Positions 33,729 through 41,138 are shown, counted from the first letter of the stretch. The stretch is 64,000 bases of DNA from a virus (IMGVR_UViG_2925891887_000001); one strand, 5' to 3'. Notes: generated from the letters alone by a model not told the origin. Numbers and translations are program-made.

Positions 33729-34007
33729 TTACGGCAACCTGCTCAGTATTTCCTCTAGATCTTTTTTTGTCATATTGGAGTTCTCATAGATGCGCATGAT
33801 TTTCTCACGCGTCTTAGCGGAAACCCCAACGGCAGATGTGACTTTGTCAAATTCAGCCATAGTCATCGTCTCCAGAATGGCATTGATAACTTCAGCCTTA
33901 GACATCTTGATTTTTTTCTCTTTGAGTTTTATTTGAAATTTTCCAAGTTTTTCATTGGCCTTATCAGACAATGCCACTTGGCAATAAGTTGTTTTCTTTT
34001 CGCTCAT
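33729..34007 (-). CDS. hypothetical protein (92 aa)
   Basis: Start lies 2 nt downstream of the helicase stop. Confidence 0.5.
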   Translation of the reverse strand: MSEKKTTYCQVALSDKANEKLGKFQIKLKEKKIKMSKAEVINAILETMTMAEFDKVTSAVGVSAKTREKIMRIYENSNMTKKDLEEILSRLP

Positions 34008-34009
34008 AA

Positions 34010-35569
34010 CTAATCTCGTTTCAGAACTCCAAAATCGAATGCGCCATCAACAGGCAATACACCTTCTGCAAAGCCAGGTGTGGTGTCGATGATGTGTTTT
34101 CGCTCATAAGAGTGAGACAACAGGTATTTGTTGCTAATGTCAATGAAATCAGTGATAAAACACACGTTTGCCTGATTCTTCTTGGCTCGTAAGCCACGAC
34201 CGACACGTTGTCTCATTTCAACTTCTGCTTTCCCACCACCAGCAAGAATGACCGCACCAACGCTTGGCACATCAACACCGACATCCAGAATAGTCGAGCC
34301 TATTAAAACATCTATGTCGCCAGACGCTAAACTGTTCAGCTTTGCTTGCCTTGTCGACTGGTTCGATTCCCCATAAATGAAGTCAACTCTAAGGCCGGAC
34401 TCTTTCATCATTTCCATCAGGATTTGCCCGTGGCGTTTAAGACGAACCAGAGTCATACAATTGAGAGAATGTTGCTTATAGAGCAATGCTTCGCGAACAA
34501 TGGCCTCATTACGTCCCAAATTATACACGATCCCCAACTGATAAGCCTTTTGGTAGGCAGTGCTCATACCTACTCTAAAATTGAGGTGTTTGTTGGCAAG
34601 TTCTGCCTTGATTCTGGCCTCGTCCGGCTTGTAGGCAACTTTATGATAAAGGAAGTATGGCTTTGCCAGAATGCCTCTATCAATCAGGTACTTTTCCGTG
34701 ACTTTTATTTCAATTCGCCCGGCCACTGCCATCAGACGCATGTTGGCTTCCGTAGAATCCTTCATGAACGGCGTTGCCGTAAGCGCCAGGCGATAGTCTG
34801 CGTTCGCACATAATCTGGCAATGTCATAGAAATTAGAGCCTGAAGACTCATGCGCCTCTTCCAGAATAAGAAGAGAGACACTTGAAAGGAAGCGTTTCAC
34901 CAAGTCCCGACGTTTGAGGTGGTAGCTCTTCTTATCTGGAGTTGCATCGCGTGGTGGTTCTTCAAGGAAACTTGCCAGAGTTTGAACTGTAGCGACGTTG
35001 ATATGTCGTGATACCTGGAACTCACCCGAGCCAATGACTCCAACCTTTTGGTCTTTTAACCACGGTTCGCCATTTTCGGCGCGGTAGTCGATGGATCTCT
35101 GGAAGTTTTCGGCCATCTGAAACATCAGAACAGAGCGGGTTGTTAAAAATAATGTCATTCGACCGATACGTGCAGCTGCTTTGCAGGCAACATTAGATTT
35201 CCCGCCACCAGTAGCGATCTGCGCAATCATCATTCCCTCTCGAACCAGTGTTTCCACAGTCTGATCCTGATATGCATAATCAGGATTGTATGGGAATGGG
35301 TTGACCGCCGGATTTGGCTTTCCAAGCGCCGGAGCTTTGTCTTTGCGGATATGAACACATTTGATGCCCGCCTTGTTCAAGTTCGCCGCTACAGGCTTGG
35401 CAAAGCCAGCAGGGAACGAGTTTTTACTCCAGTTGAACATCGTGCTTGTGCCCTTCCAGTCGCCAGTCTCGACTTCGTAGCTCAACATCTGTTGCACCAG
35501 TTGCTTTACCTTGTCATCTGCGCCAGAAATAAGTGCATTTACTGCGTTAGATACAATCCGAACAGTCAT
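34010..35569 (-). CDS. SF2 (DEAH-type) DNA helicase
   Basis: Motif I IATGGGKS, motif II LILEEAHE, motif III LTATP, motifs V-VI VGVDVPSVGAVILAGG...QRVGRGLR. Confidence 0.85.
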   Translation of the reverse strand: MTVRIVSNAVNALISGADDKVKQLVQQMLSYEVETGDWKGTSTMFNWSKNSFPAGFAKPVAANLNKAGIKCVHIRKDKAPALGKPNPAVNPFPYNPDYAYQDQTVETLVREGMMIAQIATGGGKSNVACKAAARIGRMTLFLTTRSVLMFQMAENFQRSIDYRAENGEPWLKDQKVGVIGSGEFQVSRHINVATVQTLASFLEEPPRDATPDKKSYHLKRRDLVKRFLSSVSLLILEEAHESSGSNFYDIARLCANADYRLALTATPFMKDSTEANMRLMAVAGRIEIKVTEKYLIDRGILAKPYFLYHKVAYKPDEARIKAELANKHLNFRVGMSTAYQKAYQLGIVYNLGRNEAIVREALLYKQHSLNCMTLVRLKRHGQILMEMMKESGLRVDFIYGESNQSTRQAKLNSLASGDIDVLIGSTILDVGVDVPSVGAVILAGGGKAEVEMRQRVGRGLRAKKNQANVCFITDFIDISNKYLLSHSYERKHIIDTTPGFAEGVLPVDGAFDFGVLKRD

Positions 35570-35633: not shown

Positions 35634-36332
35634 ATGGATTGTAGCAATAAAATGGATGTAAAAATCACGATTTTGCAGGTTGATGTTGCCAACCTTCGCC
35701 CGAATACCTGGAACACCAATTCGGTTGGTGCGCAGAATTTCGAAAAACTGAAAGGTTCTATCGAAAAATTGGGCTTTTTTAAGCCAATTTTGGCTCGTGA
35801 ACTTGAAGATGGATTTTTTGAAATCCTCGGCGGCGAACATCGCTGGCGTGCCGCTATTGAGCAAGGAATTTCAACGGTTCCGGTGCTTTCTGTGGGCAAA
35901 ATTAGCGATGTCGTAGCTAAACAGATGTCACTGGTGGACAACGAGCGATACGGTGAAGACGACCAAATCGCATTGCAACGCTTCATTGAAGAAATTCAGT
36001 CAGAGCTTGACTATCAACTGTCTGAAATCGCCCCGTATGACGACGAAATCTCGATGGTTTTAGCAAAAGAGGCGGCAATCGACCTTGAAGCACTGGAGGC
36101 GTTGTCTCGTGGTAGTGATGAGCCTGTCGATACCGACAAACGAGAGAAAACCGAACGTGTGGGTGCGGAACATCAGACCATGCGCTTCAAAGTAACTTTC
36201 GATGCGTCAGATCGTGTTGCAGAAACCATAAAAAACATCATTAAAGAGCAGGCTATTAACACCGGTAATGAAATGGAGAACGCTGGTGAGGCTCTGGTGT
36301 GGCTGGTCGACTACTACAAGGAGCGTATGTAA
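35634..36332 (+). CDS. ParB/Srx-fold N-terminal domain protein 1
   Basis: LRPNTWNTN...FKPILARELEDGFFEILGGEHRWRAAIEQGISTVPV matches the ParB N-terminal domain GxxR box. Acidic C-terminus. Confidence 0.65.
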   Translation: MDCSNKMDVKITILQVDVANLRPNTWNTNSVGAQNFEKLKGSIEKLGFFKPILARELEDGFFEILGGEHRWRAAIEQGISTVPVLSVGKISDVVAKQMSLVDNERYGEDDQIALQRFIEEIQSELDYQLSEIAPYDDEISMVLAKEAAIDLEALEALSRGSDEPVDTDKREKTERVGAEHQTMRFKVTFDASDRVAETIKNIIKEQAINTGNEMENAGEALVWLVDYYKERM

Positions 36333-37000
36333 TGACCAAAAAGTTTGAAATCGTATATCGCGACCCGGCAGATCTTATTCCCTATGAGATGAATGCCAAA
36401 AAGCATGATGAACAGCAGATCCGAGATCTGGCCGCAGCCATTAAAAAGCGCGGATTTGACCAGCCAATTACGGTCGATAAGAACGACGTAATTATTACTG
36501 GCCACGGCCGCCGTGAGGCTGCAATTTTTGCTGGACTTGAGCGCGTACCGGTTATTGTTCGCGATGATCTCAGTGATGACGAGGTTCGTGCGAAGCGCCT
36601 TGAAGATAACCGACTTGCCAGCATTGATTACGATGCAATTAAGCTACAGAAAGAGCTTGAGTCGCTTGTTCTGGACGATATCGAGGTTTTCGGCTTTGAA
36701 GAGCGTGAGTTGAATGTTCTCGTTGGCAGTATGACAGAAGAAATGGACACCGACTCGCTAGTTATCGATCTTGGCGAAGAAACTAAACGACAGAAGGATG
36801 AACACACCGTGATCAGTCGTGAAGTTGCAGCGGAAGAAGTACGTGTTGTCGACGTATTGGGCTTTAAAACGCTCCCTGCTGGCTCTGCCATTGTTGTTGG
36901 TGATTTGCTTGCCCACATGGAAGAAATGACGGGAGAAAGCGGGGTAGACGCATTTGTGGCATATGCGGAGAAGATCTCTTCCGGGGAGATGGCTGCATGA
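36332..37000 (+). CDS. ParB/Srx-fold N-terminal domain protein 2
   Basis: LIPYEMNAKKH...FDQPITVDKNDVIITGHGRREAAIFAGLERVPVIV. TAATG overlap with the upstream gene. Confidence 0.65.
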   Translation: MTKKFEIVYRDPADLIPYEMNAKKHDEQQIRDLAAAIKKRGFDQPITVDKNDVIITGHGRREAAIFAGLERVPVIVRDDLSDDEVRAKRLEDNRLASIDYDAIKLQKELESLVLDDIEVFGFEERELNVLVGSMTEEMDTDSLVIDLGEETKRQKDEHTVISREVAAEEVRVVDVLGFKTLPAGSAIVVGDLLAHMEEMTGESGVDAFVAYAEKISSGEMAA

Positions 37001-37635
37001 GCAAATACATCATCAACGTATCGTTTCAGACACGCGTAAATAAAACCACGCGCACGTTGGAAATCGCTGAGTCGTTCGGGCTTGGCCTGGACGAAAAAGA
37101 GTGGACGCTTTACGACAATCTGGAGCTGGAAGTGAAGCAGGGCGATGTGGTGTACATTACCGGCCAATCCGGTTCCGGCAAATCCGTTGTGCTGCGCGAG
37201 CTGCAACACCAGATGAAGGATGAAGGGCTATCTGTGGCCTCCATCGATGATTTTACCTTCGATAATGAGGTTAACGTCATTGACCAACTGGGCAAAACTA
37301 CCAGTGATGCGCTTGGGTTGTTATCTATGGCTGGTCTGAACGATGCATATCTGTTTGTTCGCAAGCCTTCTGAAATGTCAGACGGTCAGAAATATCGTCT
37401 CAAGATTGCCAAACTGATTGAGTCAGGCGCTAAAGTGTGGGCTGCTGACGAGTTCGGCGCTGTTCTCGACCGTGTAACCGCTCAGGTTGTGGCATCTAAC
37501 CTCCAGCGTGCCGCTCGAAAGGTTGGTGCGACGGTAATGGTGGCGACGACTCACGAAGACCTGAAGAACGCGCTGCGCCCGGATATGCAGATCACCAAGC
37601 ACTACAAAGAACGCGTGAAGGTGGAATATGCCTGA
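36997..37635 (+). CDS. stand-alone ABC-type ATPase
   Basis: Walker A ITGQSGSGKSV, signature-like MSDGQKYRLKIA, Walker B VWAADEFGAVLD, H-loop ATTHE. ATGA overlap. Confidence 0.7.
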   Translation: MSKYIINVSFQTRVNKTTRTLEIAESFGLGLDEKEWTLYDNLELEVKQGDVVYITGQSGSGKSVVLRELQHQMKDEGLSVASIDDFTFDNEVNVIDQLGKTTSDALGLLSMAGLNDAYLFVRKPSEMSDGQKYRLKIAKLIESGAKVWAADEFGAVLDRVTAQVVASNLQRAARKVGATVMVATTHEDLKNALRPDMQITKHYKERVKVEYA

Positions 37636-37882
37636 TTTGAAGATCGTAGAGCTGAAGCCATCGAAAGAGACTGATAACAACAACGTGGAAGTCATCCGCC
37701 TGCTGGAAGAAGCACTTCAGCACGCCAGAGAAGGAAAAAGCCAGAGCCTGGCGCTGTTGATGATCAACAACGACGGCAGTGTTCTTGATTGCTGGCATAA
37801 CGGCGGGCGCCCGTATGTCATGGTAGGGGCGATGGAGTCTCTTCGCCTGGATTTCATCAATGCCAATATCGAGCGCAGGTGA
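37628..37882 (+). CDS. hypothetical protein (84 aa)
   Basis: Overlaps the upstream gene by 8 nt and the downstream gene by 4 nt. Confidence 0.5.
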   Translation: MPDLKIVELKPSKETDNNNVEVIRLLEEALQHAREGKSQSLALLMINNDGSVLDCWHNGGRPYVMVGAMESLRLDFINANIERR

Positions 37883-38778
37883 TCGAGATGGCAGATATCA
37901 TCATCAAACGCTACCGCCCTGAAGAGTTTCCGCGTCATCTGGACTTTCTGGAGCGAATGACTGTCACAAAGGGAACTGTAGAGGACTGGCACGCTCTTAA
38001 GTCGCTTCACTACAAAACAGACGGCAAACCTTTCGCGCCAACTTACTATCGCTGCGAACTTGATGACCGTCTGGTGGGCGTCGTGGTTATGGCTTACCCG
38101 AAACTACTGCTGGCACCTCGCCACCGCATGTTTCCTAAGTTGAAACCAACCACTAATACCACCGTGGCTAACCAGTACTGGGGTCGGTACGTGAATAACA
38201 ACTTTGCGGTGATCAGTCGCTCAGTTGTGGATACTCAGTATCGTGGCGTAGGCGTCTCTTATCGAATGATTAACCTGGTTAGCAGGATGCATGACCGGCC
38301 AATCATTGAGATCCAGTCCTCGATGAGCAAATACAATCCCTTCGCCATGAAAGCAGGGTTTAAGTTCATCCGCCCTGAGCGACCGAAGAGCTATGAAAGT
38401 GCACTGCGTGTATTCCAGCGCCATTTCCGTTCCGACCCGGGTGATAACGAGGCGATCGTCAAAGAGTTGTTCGCAATGAGCGAGTCTCGTCGTCGCCGTG
38501 CACTGCGTGATCTGGTGGCGGACTACCACAAGAACAGTTCCCTGGCAAAAGCTGGGCGGAATCGTGGCACGACGATTCAGGACATTGCCGACAGTCTGGT
38601 GGACGAGGCCAGCATTGTGAAGCTGCTCAAGGACATTCACAACCTGAGCTTTACGTCTCCGTTGTATGGTGTGTACCGAAACCCTGACTTTGGCCGTCGA
38701 CTGCCTGACACGCTGCCACTGCTGGCATTCGACAAACAACCTTTGGATAAACCGTTAGAAATTGCTTTACCGGCATAA
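37879..38778 (+). CDS. GNAT-fold acyltransferase-like protein with a C-terminal extension
   Basis: FAVISRSVVDTQYRGVGVSYRMINLV matches GNAT motif A (R/Q-x-x-G-x-G/A). SKYNPFAMKAGFKFI matches motif B. Confidence 0.55.
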   Translation: MIEMADIIIKRYRPEEFPRHLDFLERMTVTKGTVEDWHALKSLHYKTDGKPFAPTYYRCELDDRLVGVVVMAYPKLLLAPRHRMFPKLKPTTNTTVANQYWGRYVNNNFAVISRSVVDTQYRGVGVSYRMINLVSRMHDRPIIEIQSSMSKYNPFAMKAGFKFIRPERPKSYESALRVFQRHFRSDPGDNEAIVKELFAMSESRRRRALRDLVADYHKNSSLAKAGRNRGTTIQDIADSLVDEASIVKLLKDIHNLSFTSPLYGVYRNPDFGRRLPDTLPLLAFDKQPLDKPLEIALPA

Positions 38779-38787
38779 GGATTTGCC

Positions 38788-39054
38788 ATGACGTTAACCG
38801 ATAAACAAAAGGACATCATCAAAACGCTCAATCTCGGTTATGAGCGAGGTCATCTACTTGACCTGGACGAATTGCTTGAAGTTTTGCCGTACAAGACAAC
38901 CAAGCAAAGTATCCAGTTCTCAATTCGCGCTCTGATAAAAAAGGGGCTGGTGGAGAAAGGGCATACGCGCCAACGCAGTGACAATCGCTATCACCGCCGA
39001 ACTCTTGGGTTAACTACTTTAGGTCGAGCCAAAGCGAAGTTACTGGTGATGTAA
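38788..39054 (+). CDS. small winged-helix-like DNA-binding protein
   Basis: LDELLEVLPYKTTKQSIQFSIRALIKKGLVEK resembles a MarR/wHTH recognition helix followed by a wing. Confidence 0.4.
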   Translation: MTLTDKQKDIIKTLNLGYERGHLLDLDELLEVLPYKTTKQSIQFSIRALIKKGLVEKGHTRQRSDNRYHRRTLGLTTLGRAKAKLLVM

Positions 39055-39056
39055 TC

Positions 39057-39154
39057 GGTCTGGGAGCTTATTTAAAGACCTGCTTCTGTATATATAAATA
39101 ATAAGTAACTTATTAAATATATACGGAAGCAGGCTTCGTAAGACATGCCAGACC
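39057..39154. repeat. large AT-rich imperfect palindrome, copy 2
   Basis: Outer arms GGTCTGG (39057-39063) and CCAGACC (39148-39154). Inner arms CCTGCTTCTGTATATATAAATAATAAGT/ACTTATTAAATATATACGGAAGCAGG. Paralogue of 12500-12596. Confidence 0.85.
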
Positions 39155-39168
39155 TAATTAAACACCCC

Positions 39169-39210
39169 AGAAAACAAGTTGGTTAGCAGATGCAGTAAAC
39201 AAGTTGTTTT
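39169..39210 (+). promoter_or_regulatory. two tandem operator-type sites upstream of the packaging genes
   Basis: AGAAAACAAGTTGGTT (39169-39184) and TAAACAAGTTGTTTT (39196-39210). The hairpin AGAGCGC/GCGCTCT (39211-39230) follows. Confidence 0.5.
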
Positions 39211-39249
39211 AGAGCGCATGGACGCGCTCTGTGTGTTTTAGAGGGATCT

Positions 39250-39882
39250 ATGACGGTCGAAAAAGACGAGGTAAAAACTCGCCTGACACCAGCGGAGTGG
39301 GCCGAAGCTGAAGCCAAATGGACGTCAGGCGAATATACACTCTCAAAGCTGGAGGAAGAGTACGGCATTCGTCGTGAAACACTCTCCAGACATTTCAAAA
39401 AGCGAGGATTAGAGAAAGGCGCGGACTCTGTTGGGAAGATGGTTCGTGAGTCTCTTAAATCTGACGCAGAGCTTCGCGCTAAAGCCCGTGCGGAAAAGAT
39501 AGAAGAACGTCGTACACGTTATGACGGCTGGGCGTATGCGTTGGGGCAGATGGTGATGGTCGAAGTCACTACGGCCAAACGTGAGGGTAAGCCTTTAGGG
39601 GCGATTGAGGATTCTCTCAAGAGCTTACAGAGAGCCAGTAATACCCTTGCAAAATGCTTTGAAGTTTCGTCCAAAGCATTGGGCATGGATCATGCGGAAA
39701 ATGACGAGGAAGAAATTCCGAACCTGGTATTTGGTGAGCTTACGCCTTCCCAGGTGGCGAAATTACGTCAGGAAGACGACGAGCCTGAAATCATCGATGA
39801 CGAATTGCTTGAGACGTTGGAAGAAGAAGCTCTAAGCGAATTTGATGCGACAGATGATGGAAGTGAAGGGGAGGACGAATAA
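39250..39882 (+). CDS. terminase small subunit
   Basis: Lies directly upstream of TerL and overlaps it (TAATG). N-terminal HTH-like YTLSKLEEEYGIRRETLSRHFKKRG. Acidic C-terminus. Confidence 0.6.
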   Translation: MTVEKDEVKTRLTPAEWAEAEAKWTSGEYTLSKLEEEYGIRRETLSRHFKKRGLEKGADSVGKMVRESLKSDAELRAKARAEKIEERRTRYDGWAYALGQMVMVEVTTAKREGKPLGAIEDSLKSLQRASNTLAKCFEVSSKALGMDHAENDEEEIPNLVFGELTPSQVAKLRQEDDEPEIIDDELLETLEEEALSEFDATDDGSEGEDE

Positions 39883-41138
39883 TGGCAATCCCGTCCTCGC
39901 TCAGTCTTGTGCAACTGCATTCTGGACAGATGAAAGTCTTCCAGTCTCCGCATCGATTTAAAGTTGTTTGTGCTGGTCGACGCTGGGGAAAATCCCGGTT
40001 GTCGATCTCCACTATTATTCGTGCGGCGGCAAAGGAAAAAAAGCAAAGGGTCTGGTATGTCGCTCCTACTTACCAGATGGCTCGCCAGATTTTGTGGGAC
40101 GATCTACAGGAAGTTCTGCCTCGTAAGTGGGTTAGGAAAAAGAACGACACCACGATGACAATCGTGTTGAAGAACGGTTCGGAGATCGCCCTCAAAGGTG
40201 CTGATAAGCCTGACACTCTGCGCGGCGTAGCGTTGCATTTTGTAGTGCTTGATGAATTTCAGGATATGAAGGCTGACACCTGGTACAAGGTGTTACGACC
40301 TACTCTTTCATCGACACGCGGCGGTGCACTGATCATTGGTACGCCAAAAGGCTTCTCGGAATTTCACAAACTGTGGACTATAGGCCAGAACGTAGAGCTG
40401 CAAAGAAAGGGACAGTGGAAGAGCTGGCAGTTTGTAACTGCCGATTCTCCGTTTGTGCCTACGGCGGAAATTGAAGCTGCTAAGAACGATATGGACCCCA
40501 AATCGTTCGCTCAGGAGTACCTGGCCAGCTTTGAGAACATGTCCGGGCGCGTTTACTACCCGTTCGATCGTAACGTGCATGTAAAACCGCTTCAGTTCAA
40601 CCCTCGGTTGCCTATATGGGTAGGGCAGGACTTCAACATTGACCCGATGTCTTCAGTAATTTTGCAACCTCAGCCAAATGGTGAGCTATGGGCAATTGAT
40701 GAATTGGTGCTCTTTTCCTCTAACACGGCAGAAGTTTGTGATGAGCTTGAGAGACGCTTCTGGCGCTGGAAATCACAGGTAACGGTATTTCCAGATCCGG
40801 CAGGTGCTTATCGCCAACATGCTCGTGGGGAGTCTGACGTAGACATATTCAAAGAGAAGGGATTCTTACGTGTCGATTATTCGAAAAAGCACCCGCCAAT
40901 TGCGGATCGTGTTAATGCTGTTAACCGAATGCTGATGTCCGCATCTGGAGATATCCGGCTGTATATCGATCCGAAGTGCAAGCATTTGATTGATTCACTG
41001 GAAAAAGTCATCTACAAGCCTGGAACACGAGATATGGATAAGACAGGTGGCATTGAGCATAGTGCAGACGCATTGGGCTATCCAGTACATCGTAGGTATC
41101 CAGTCAAAAACCGTGTTATTCTTGGTGGTTCTCGATAG
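39882..41138 (+). CDS. terminase large subunit
   Basis: Walker A-like VCAGRRWGKS and Walker B FVVLDEFQD. C-terminal nuclease-type acidic motifs GQDFNIDP and FPDPAG. Confidence 0.85.
   Translation: MAIPSSLSLVQLHSGQMKVFQSPHRFKVVCAGRRWGKSRLSISTIIRAAAKEKKQRVWYVAPTYQMARQILWDDLQEVLPRKWVRKKNDTTMTIVLKNGSEIALKGADKPDTLRGVALHFVVLDEFQDMKADTWYKVLRPTLSSTRGGALIIGTPKGFSEFHKLWTIGQNVELQRKGQWKSWQFVTADSPFVPTAEIEAAKNDMDPKSFAQEYLASFENMSGRVYYPFDRNVHVKPLQFNPRLPIWVGQDFNIDPMSSVILQPQPNGELWAIDELVLFSSNTAEVCDELERRFWRWKSQVTVFPDPAGAYRQHARGESDVDIFKEKGFLRVDYSKKHPPIADRVNAVNRMLMSASGDIRLYIDPKCKHLIDSLEKVIYKPGTRDMDKTGGIEHSADALGYPVHRRYPVKNRVILGGSR

Follow-up and report, generated by a model that had tools for sequence, protein, structure and literature searches.

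The Mom protein of phage Mu, a GNAT-fold enzyme for acyl-modification of DNA adenine that is encoded at the end of the Mu genome, is expressed late and modifies DNA before packaging. ParB-like proteins are also partners of DNA modification, as DpdB in the Dpd 7-deazaguanine system and as ParB-methyltransferase fusions. Experimentally, some phage thymidine dioxygenases (clade E 5mYOX) need a co-expressed ParB-like protein to modify DNA (bioRxiv 10.1101/2025.08.14.668559), which provides a precedent for ParB-like partners of DNA-modifying enzymes. For systems that pair an ABC ATPase with a GNAT domain, acylation of a DNA nucleobase has been predicted (Iyer, Zhang, Burroughs and Aravind, Nucleic Acids Research 2013, as summarized in Viruses 2021;13:63, PMC7824862), with Tenacibaculum phage pT24 given as an example. 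Here we compare these systems with a gene module at positions 35,634-39,054 of a viral DNA stretch of 64,000 nt, IMGVR_UViG_2925891887_000001, hereafter the window. The module encodes two ParB-like proteins, an ABC ATPase, a GNAT-like protein and two small proteins.

The window is an SSU5-like phage-plasmid. Across the 3.4-kb module region it shares 99% identity with Escherichia phage Cyrano (pLF82) and with CMS-2020a, and 86% with genes SSU5_125-130 of Salmonella phage SSU5. The module most likely encodes one DNA-bound enzyme machine. We hold with high confidence that its five core genes (P1, P2, P3, P5 and P6 below) form a single late-expressed nucleoprotein machine. Our preferred reading, to which we assign a probability of roughly 0.4, is a ParB-assisted, ATP-dependent acyl-CoA:DNA base acyltransferase that would mark phage DNA around packaging. 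The module genes are as follows.

35634-36332, + strand: P1, ParB/Srx-family protein 1 (Pfam ParB_N 3.3e-13; phrog_723 2e-79)
36332-37000, + strand: P2, ParB/Srx-family protein 2 (Pfam ParB_N 1.3e-8; phrog_930 6e-112)
36997-37635, + strand: P3, soluble minimal ABC ATPase (Pfam ABC_tran 5.9e-13)
37628-37882, + strand: P4, 84 aa, facultative insert (phrog_796 the sole match)
37888-38778, + strand: P5, GNAT-fold acyl-CoA acyltransferase-like protein with a family-specific C-terminal domain (alternative GTG start at 37879)
38788-39054, + strand: P6, 88 aa, probably a winged-helix DNA binder (phrog_900 1.9e-45)

P3 and P5 as relatives of COG2401-type proteins

P3 carries the full motif set of an ABC ATPase: Walker A (GQSGSGKS), signature (SDGQKYR), Walker B with its glutamate (AADEF), D-loop and H-loop (TTHED). 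The positions of these motifs are invariant in 31 fused ABC-GNAT proteins, as are the GNAT motifs of the same proteins. In the P5 family alignment, the acyl-CoA pyrophosphate-binding motif R122-x-x-G125-x-[S/A/G] is invariant, along with residues H44, Y45, R114 and E144, and P5 also possesses a conserved, family-specific C-terminal domain of ~130 residues. The acyl-CoA motif of the GNAT part and the ABC motifs are thus kept intact in the split and fused families alike.

A P5 profile search of 1.84 billion representative proteins returned 965 relatives. Besides stand-alone proteins of ~300 aa, most are 440-560 aa long with the GNAT-like part at the C-terminus, and an ABC_tran domain occupied the N-terminus in 10/10 long relatives scanned. 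P3 matches the ABC half of one fused protein with a phmmer E-value of 3e-45. Sequence and profile searches of P5 against the PDB gave no match, and the first scan of viral contigs with the P5 family returned close relatives only. Several remote fused homologues possess extra parts (P0154, P0163, P0178, P0188; loci L131/L134 5580-9362): a TFIIB repeat at the C-terminus of one, a LAGLIDADG-bearing intein within the ABC domain of another, and an N-terminal family-B DNA polymerase (1260 aa) in others, the latter being putative fusions that may reflect gene-calling artefacts.

By these homologies, P3 and P5 are the N- and C-terminal halves of a split COG2401-type (MK0520-like) ABC-GNAT protein. The ABC domain of that family is present in P3, and P5 is homologous to its C-terminal GNAT half. 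Because the two domains lie in two genes rather than in one polypeptide, with P4 between them or the genes directly abutting, P3/P5 are considered a split variant. Gene order, all motifs and carriage by viruses are shared with COG2401-type proteins, and the differences are the split itself, a variable insertion slot, two ParB-like paralogues, a winged helix-turn-helix gene and a fixed site upstream of terS/terL. The COG2401 name has already been attached to P5 homologues by the Cyrano annotators and by JGI. Furthermore, pT24 gp038 is a homologue of the fused family (tblastn 7e-10; family hidden Markov model (HMM) 5e-40), and the module therefore belongs to the predicted system that pT24 exemplifies. 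An earlier note, made from the window alone, did not recognize the gene combination as a described one; it is in fact covered by COG2401, 'ABC-type ATPase fused to a predicted acetyltransferase domain', and by this cited example. Acyl transfer to a DNA nucleobase by COG2401-type systems is itself a prediction, so that 'same function' as P3/P5 means 'same prediction' only.

The ParB-like proteins P1 and P2 accompany this putative split enzyme. Conserved positions of the P1 family coincide with ParB boxes I-III (NPN, GEHRxxAA and N..RGE), and the family profile best matched Spo0J, Myxococcus and Caulobacter ParB and Noc (E ~1e-13, N-domain only), with far weaker matches to 'ParB nuclease' (5e-4) and serine-kinase relatives. 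In P1, the nucleotide-binding domain at the N-terminus is therefore assigned, from these profiles, to the CTP-clamp ParB type. In the profile search, matches to solved ParBs ended at this domain, and neither a ParB helix-turn-helix nor a C-terminal dimerization domain was detected. P2, at 33% identity to P1 (E=7e-10), is by sequence its paralogue. The ParB part of P2 matched phrog_498 'DNA methyltransferase' (1e-31) and PADLOC MTase_II (2.8e-17), and its N-domain most resembles ParB domains fused to phage DNA methyltransferases.

Fusion and adjacency tie ParB-like proteins to ABC-GNAT proteins in other viruses. Relatives number 547 in archaeal genomes (Bathyarchaeia, Nitrososphaeria, Caldarchaeales), and in Bathyarchaeia several archaeal proteins of ~640-660 aa carry a P1-like ParB domain N-terminal to the ABC and GNAT domains. 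These triple fusions are matched by the family HMM at 1e-11 to 1e-13; BLASTP aligned P1 with one of them at 29% identity over 211 residues (E=1e-11), and Pfam ParB_N was found in protein P0247 at 4e-4. In other archaeal loci, including Nitrososphaeria, a stand-alone ParB-like gene lies directly 3′ of the fused gene (Pfam ParB_N 1e-10). Gordonia phage Mariokart encodes a ParB-like protein (gene 1) and a fused ABC-GNAT protein (gene 2) with a 4-nt overlap, and genes 85 and 86 of phage Jace (L256, Rhodococcus/Gordonia) are arranged likewise. Overall, ParB is a recurrent, non-obligatory partner of ABC-GNAT proteins.

Two neighbors of such genes were also observed. A PanD-like aspartate decarboxylase gene directly follows the ParB-like and ABC-GNAT genes of Jace (5471-7550 of L256) and could possibly provide the predicted acyl transfer with a donor of the β-alanine type. 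At one locus of a Nitrososphaerota genome (L173 9473-9970), a staphylococcal-nuclease-family gene (Pfam SNase 6e-13) lies directly 3′ of the fused ABC-GNAT gene.

Constraint, gene order and terminase linkage

All six proteins match PHROG families at 1e-45 to 1e-165, and codon differences between the window and SSU5 indicate strong purifying selection across the module; the genes are consequently not chance open reading frames (ORFs). P3 and P5 are the most constrained, with 55 synonymous versus 4 non-synonymous codon differences for P3 and 92 versus 5 for P5. The six ORFs proposed in the earlier note were all recovered on the plus strand at the same coordinates, as were its motifs in the translations (ILGGEHRWRAA in P1; ITGHGRREAA in P2; GQSGSGKS, SDGQKYR and AADEFGAVLD in P3; YRGVGVS and NPFAMKAGF in P5). 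Its domain calls of two ParB-like proteins and an ABC ATPase agree with Pfam (ParB_N for P1 and P2, ABC_tran for P3). The junction bases it gave were likewise confirmed, namely TAATG at 36330-36334 (where the P2 start overlaps the P1 stop), ATGA at 36997-37000, an 8-nt overlap at 37628-37635 and GTGA at 37879-37882. The P1 start is annotated 18 nt downstream in Cyrano. The motifs also support its description of P5 as GNAT-like. P5 probably starts at ATG 37888 rather than GTG 37879, because a good Shine-Dalgarno sequence (AGGTGA) serves that codon and database homologues are 296 aa long. With this start the P4/P5 junction becomes a 5-nt gap instead of the proposed overlap.

P4 sets the unit apart from the six-gene operon originally described, which is better seen as a five-gene core plus a facultative gene. 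P4 is present in 38/80 close relatives and absent in 42/80, including Cyrano, and searches of Pfam, the PDB and PADLOC gave no match for it. The slot that separates the ABC gene from the GNAT gene thus holds P4 in about half of close relatives and is empty in the others, and in distant relatives (L083, L085, L253) it holds unrelated small ORFs, such as nickie gp156, a 104-aa ORF in L083, and three ORFs in L085 including Pfam Phage_gp49_66 and RyR. This gap between the two genes is an insertion hotspot. In the bacterial split lineage, comparison of the loci shows P6 to be a conserved gene that closes the module, with orthologues in L085, L086 and nickie (gp154) at 5e-7 to 7e-5. Its designation as a winged helix-turn-helix protein, as in the earlier note, draws on weak profile matches only (Sta1 0.0025, Lrs14 0.0042, LexA_DNA_bind 0.072 and the C-terminus of PADLOC CARF3 4.5e-5), which make a winged-helix DNA-binding protein probable. 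P6 had no sequence relatives in the PDB. In the marine relative L083 (7900-8133), the small gene after the GNAT gene is Pfam 'Sequestin' (PF21825), with no detectable homology to P6.

The neighbors of the module bear out the divergent helicase and the downstream terminase genes of the earlier note:

34010-35569, - strand: ResIII/DEAD/UvsW-like helicase, a context gene divergent from the module (Pfam ResIII 1.6e-14, DEAD, Helicase_C)
39079-39133, no strand: near-perfect palindrome of 55 nt, candidate cis site (inverted repeats I1 and I3)
39210-39241, + strand: terminator-like GC hairpin with T-run, between the module and terS (consensus scan)
39250-39882, + strand: terS-like DNA-binding protein (phrog_867 2e-100, 'DNA binding domain'; assigned by position and PHROG family)
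39882-41138, + strand: terL, large terminase subunit (Pfam Terminase_6N 3e-9, Terminase_3, Terminase_6C); its start overlaps the terS-like stop

Gene order is kept at ~42-47% protein identity as helicase (minus strand), ParB, ParB, ABC, 0-3 unrelated small ORFs, GNAT and P6-like, followed further on by terS-like, terL, portal and capsid genes. Syntenic relatives comprise a Tara marine contig, an Ectothiorhodospira contig, a JGI contig, Pseudomonas phage nickie, Rhizobium RHEph10-like phages and Stenotrophomonas phages, so the neighborhood conservation that the earlier note had proposed as a check extends from E. coli phage-plasmids to distant phages. The helicase occupies the same divergent position in L083, L085, L086 and phage nickie, and the terS-like gene keeps its position relative to terL in all related loci. 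Upstream of the helicase, the window is low in GC between 30000 and 34000 (0.36-0.40 versus 0.46-0.50 elsewhere), and gene content there differs between Cyrano and SSU5. A 92-aa ORF at 33729-34007 is the counterpart of CYRAN_117, which is ~12-fold above background in the lysogen (PMC9928086).

The fused family shows the same linkage. Among 80 viral loci, a terL homologue ends at the start of the fused gene in 45 and terL follows directly in 3 more, giving 48/80 with terL directly adjoining and 57/80 with terL within 8 kb. Similarly, of 80 archaeal genome loci, 46 have terL directly adjacent and 11 have it nearby, and three archaeal loci scored as lacking terL have HK97-type capsid, portal or baseplate-like proteins as neighbors. 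The Mariokart pair lies at the physical left end of the genome, before the terminase. The module is thus tied to terminase and head genes, standing beside terS/terL or inside the head-gene module in enterobacterial, Pseudomonas, Rhizobium and Gordonia phages and in archaeal proviruses; in pT24 and Jace its homologue does not adjoin terL.

The spacer between P6 and terS holds two further elements. The palindrome starts 25 nt after the P6 stop and has an AT-rich center (sequence CCTGCTTCTGTATATATAAATAATAAGT-A-ACTTATTAAATATATACGGAAGCAGG). Most close relatives retain the core, but the palindrome is not clearly conserved in distant ones, and its link to the module is speculative. The palindrome is a candidate loading site, pac-proximal element or bidirectional hairpin, which may belong to the module. 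GenBank records of SSU5 and Cyrano are linearized inside this spacer. The GC-rich hairpin at 39210-39231 is followed by TGTGTTTT and lies immediately 5′ of the terS ribosome-binding site; for the region as a whole it does not exceed shuffle expectation. From its position, it may be a terminator or attenuator that sets the module off from the terminase genes.

Competing explanations for the module

Databases name these families 'ParB-like partition protein', 'ABC transporter' and 'ABC transporter ATP-binding subunit', the last being a misnomer applied to the GNAT-like P5. Taken at face value, these labels describe ParB partition for maintenance of the phage-plasmid together with the ATP-binding subunit of an ABC transporter. 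The labels find some grounds in the ParB_N domains of P1 and P2, in the database names 'ParB/RepB/Spo0J family partition protein' and 'ABC transporter', in the closeness of the P1 N-terminal domain to CTP-dependent clamp ParBs, and in the element being a plasmid prophage (PMC9928086). Nevertheless, a ParABS system has a cognate ParA alongside, whereas the neighboring ATPase here is ABC-type by Pfam, and SSU5 carries a separate ParA-like gene with a small downstream ORF elsewhere (SSU5_033/034). Lysogen transcriptomes of E. coli LF82, of which Cyrano is a plasmid prophage, place CYRAN_119-123 (the module) at 5.0-9.5, against a prophage median of 9.8 and a moron cut-off of 49, while the MinD/ParA-like CYRAN_99 reaches 91.7, 9-fold above background (PMC9928086 S1 Table). 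The operon is thus silent in the plasmid state, in which a partition system would be expressed. In addition, the module is found in phages and integrated archaeal proviruses that show no sign of a plasmid lifestyle. As for transport, no 19-residue window reaches a Kyte-Doolittle score of 1.6 in P1-P6, no membrane protein accompanies P3, and among those scanned its homologues are fused to GNAT and ParB domains, never to permeases. We rejected both annotations on the location of ParA, lysogen silence and the lack of a transmembrane segment; partition with transport is highly improbable, and we conclude with high confidence that the database annotations are wrong. The earlier note was right to exclude a ParA/ParB partition pair. 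The stand-alone defense or anti-defense cargo that it listed as an option is disfavored, since the module belongs to the fixed core and does not vary as cargo would, and a PADLOC search returned generic P-loop and ParB-domain-to-MTase_II matches but no specific defense system. Membership in the catalogued defense systems was accordingly rejected.

Two other explanations accept a DNA-bound machine and assign it different work. A packaging accessory complex, also among the options of the earlier note, would have the ParB-like proteins and P6 recognize a site near pac or the genome end, such as the palindrome, with no base modified; the ABC ATPase-GNAT pair would then assist or regulate terminase by organizing or clearing DNA, controlling initiation, or acetylating terminase or portal. 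In the window and in every relative of the split lineage, the module stands directly upstream of terS-terL, the fused gene adjoins terL or is translationally coupled to it in 48/80 viral and 46/80 archaeal loci, Mariokart genes 1-2 precede the terminase at the left end, such genes often stand at contig or prophage ends, and the palindrome directly follows P6. Yet the window already has a terS-like gene, most tailed phages package their DNA with no proteins of this sort, and some archaeal loci stand beside capsid, portal or tail genes, with pT24 and Jace not beside terL. Moreover, the invariant acyl-CoA motif and catalytic-type residues demand a chemical step that a packaging model leaves unspecified. 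A packaging role is not the best reading and we judge it unlikely, but it stays live because the terL and head-module linkage is strikingly strong. We are similarly doubtful of a DNA-targeted protein acetyltransferase, in which ParB and ABC proteins would bring the GNAT to DNA-bound proteins (nucleoid or chromatin, RNA polymerase, defense), or, as a variant, in which the proteins would be packed in the head and injected along with the DNA to shield it on entry, as with P1 Dar or 'polyvalent' proteins. Phage GNATs that acetylate host RNA polymerase are known, polyvalent proteins that are injected can contain ParB and GNAT domains (PMC7824862), and the gene is embedded in the head-morphogenesis module of archaeal proviruses. 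Against this stand the lack of a capsid-targeting signal, late timing that would be odd for host takeover, and the best Foldseek matches of P5, which are nucleobase-acylating GNATs.

ParB-guided acylation of DNA, the reading we prefer, draws in part on those matches and in part on the N-domains of P1 and P2 described above. In a Foldseek search of the PDB with P5, TmcA ranked 1 (2.4e-5, TM-score 0.30), Mu Mom 3 (7.6e-5) and NAT10 7; among viral predicted structures, the top match was a Mom protein (3.1e-5). The RNA cytidine N4-acetyltransferases TmcA and NAT10 couple a P-loop ATPase to a nucleobase-acetylating GNAT and a tail that binds nucleic acid, and their alignments (ranks 1, 2 and 7) span most of P5, but their ATPase is a RecD-like helicase domain rather than an ABC ATPase and their substrate is RNA. 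Mom shares the GNAT fold with P5, though it works without ABC ATPase or ParB and lacks the extra ~130-aa C-terminal domain. The ParB-activated 5mYOX enzymes resemble the module in having a short phage ParB/Srx protein, its nucleotide-binding domain conserved, beside, and sometimes fused to, an enzyme expected to act on DNA (bioRxiv 10.1101/2025.08.14.668559). In the module, the partner enzyme is an ABC ATPase plus GNAT rather than a dioxygenase, transglycosylase or methyltransferase, the ParB paralogues are two, dependence of the enzyme on ParB is only predicted, and most fused homologues occur without ParB.

Under this acylation model, the five-gene machine would be made only in the lytic/late phase. 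P1 and P2 would act as ParB-type nucleotide-dependent DNA clamps or adaptors that load on phage DNA, possibly at the operon-adjacent palindrome, and carry the ABC-GNAT pair along replicated or concatemeric DNA. P3, a soluble ABC ATPase, would close into an ATP-sandwich dimer, and its ATP turnover would offer a base to P5, which would be a GNAT enzyme that uses acyl-CoA and has a C-terminal domain of its own. P5 would then move an acyl group from an acyl-CoA onto a nucleobase just before or during packaging, with P6 as a small winged-helix DNA binder. Virion DNA would end up with a protective mark, in timing analogous to Mu Mom and in its ATPase-plus-GNAT logic to TmcA/NAT10.

Several observations weigh against this assignment. 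The Foldseek margins of TmcA, Mom and NAT10 over ordinary GNATs are small and the TM-scores low (~0.3). Alignment of the P5 family with Mu Mom by hhalign gave a probability of 0.3% (E=0.18), so similarity is at the fold level and does not extend to Mom-family membership. Because of these small margins, low scores and the absent Mom profile relationship, the structural ranking is a hint rather than proof. P5 and P3 had no Pfam match to TmcA-type domains, and the RecD-like helicase ATPase plus GNAT_acetyltr_2-type pairing that defines TmcA/NAT10 was not found. In P1, His takes the place of the first Arg of the ParB GERR box, so that CTP binding is only presumptive. The full-length AlphaFold2 (AF2) model of P1 is poor (predicted local distance difference test score, pLDDT, 51.5; <50 beyond residue 105) and was built from a shallow alignment, since homologue searches with P1 alone and with the P1 family profile found only near-identical Klebsiella and E. 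coli proteins. A detectable ParB lay within ±8 kb of the fused gene in 0/80 viral loci and at only 12/80 archaeal genome loci of the fused family; the enzyme therefore does not depend on ParB guidance. A packaging or virion role would account equally well for the very close association with terL and head genes. We found no report of DNA modification in SSU5-like phages, nor experimental work on the SSU5 module genes in the literature.

DNA modification, the remaining option of the earlier note, agrees with the published prediction and is the best reading, at the standing of a prediction. The broader interpretation of the earlier note holds in part: synteny, ABC-GNAT and ParB-ABC-GNAT fusions and lysogen silence support one linked, non-partition unit, which however has five core genes and belongs to a described combination.

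Meaning for phage-plasmids and archaeal proviruses

This kind of system was computationally predicted in 2013, and the module is a split variant of it accompanied by two ParB paralogues. In the accessible literature, which did not include the 2013 Nucleic Acids Research paper, we did not find the strength of terminase and head linkage across bacterial and archaeal viruses, the triple ParB-ABC-GNAT fusions, the facultative insertion slot between ABC and GNAT genes, or the lysogen silence of the operon. The combination of ParB, ABC ATPase and GNAT is widespread and strongly constrained and spans bacterial and archaeal viruses. Its genes occur in hundreds of clinical Enterobacteriaceae phage-plasmids, where they are systematically mis-annotated as partition proteins and ABC transporters, which misleads plasmid typing and phage annotation.

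A bolder proposal, advanced only tentatively, is that the module installs a chemically new, acyl-CoA-derived DNA-base modification that is ParB-clamp-guided and coupled to packaging. Such a machine, whose conservation reaches from HK97-type proviruses of archaea to the SSU5-like phage-plasmids found in E. coli, Klebsiella and Salmonella, would represent an ancient, unrecognized class of viral hypermodification whose ATPase-plus-GNAT mechanism parallels that of the writers of RNA N4-acetylcytidine (ac4C). Specialists would nonetheless not be surprised by a possible new DNA modification of this kind. Both SSU5 and the Cyrano prophage, which can be induced in E. coli LF82, are genetically tractable systems for telling the readings apart. 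If the acyl mark is real, it would be a new DNA modification with bearing on restriction evasion, sequencing artefacts and enzyme tools; if the module is instead a packaging factor, it would constitute a new class of terminase accessory.

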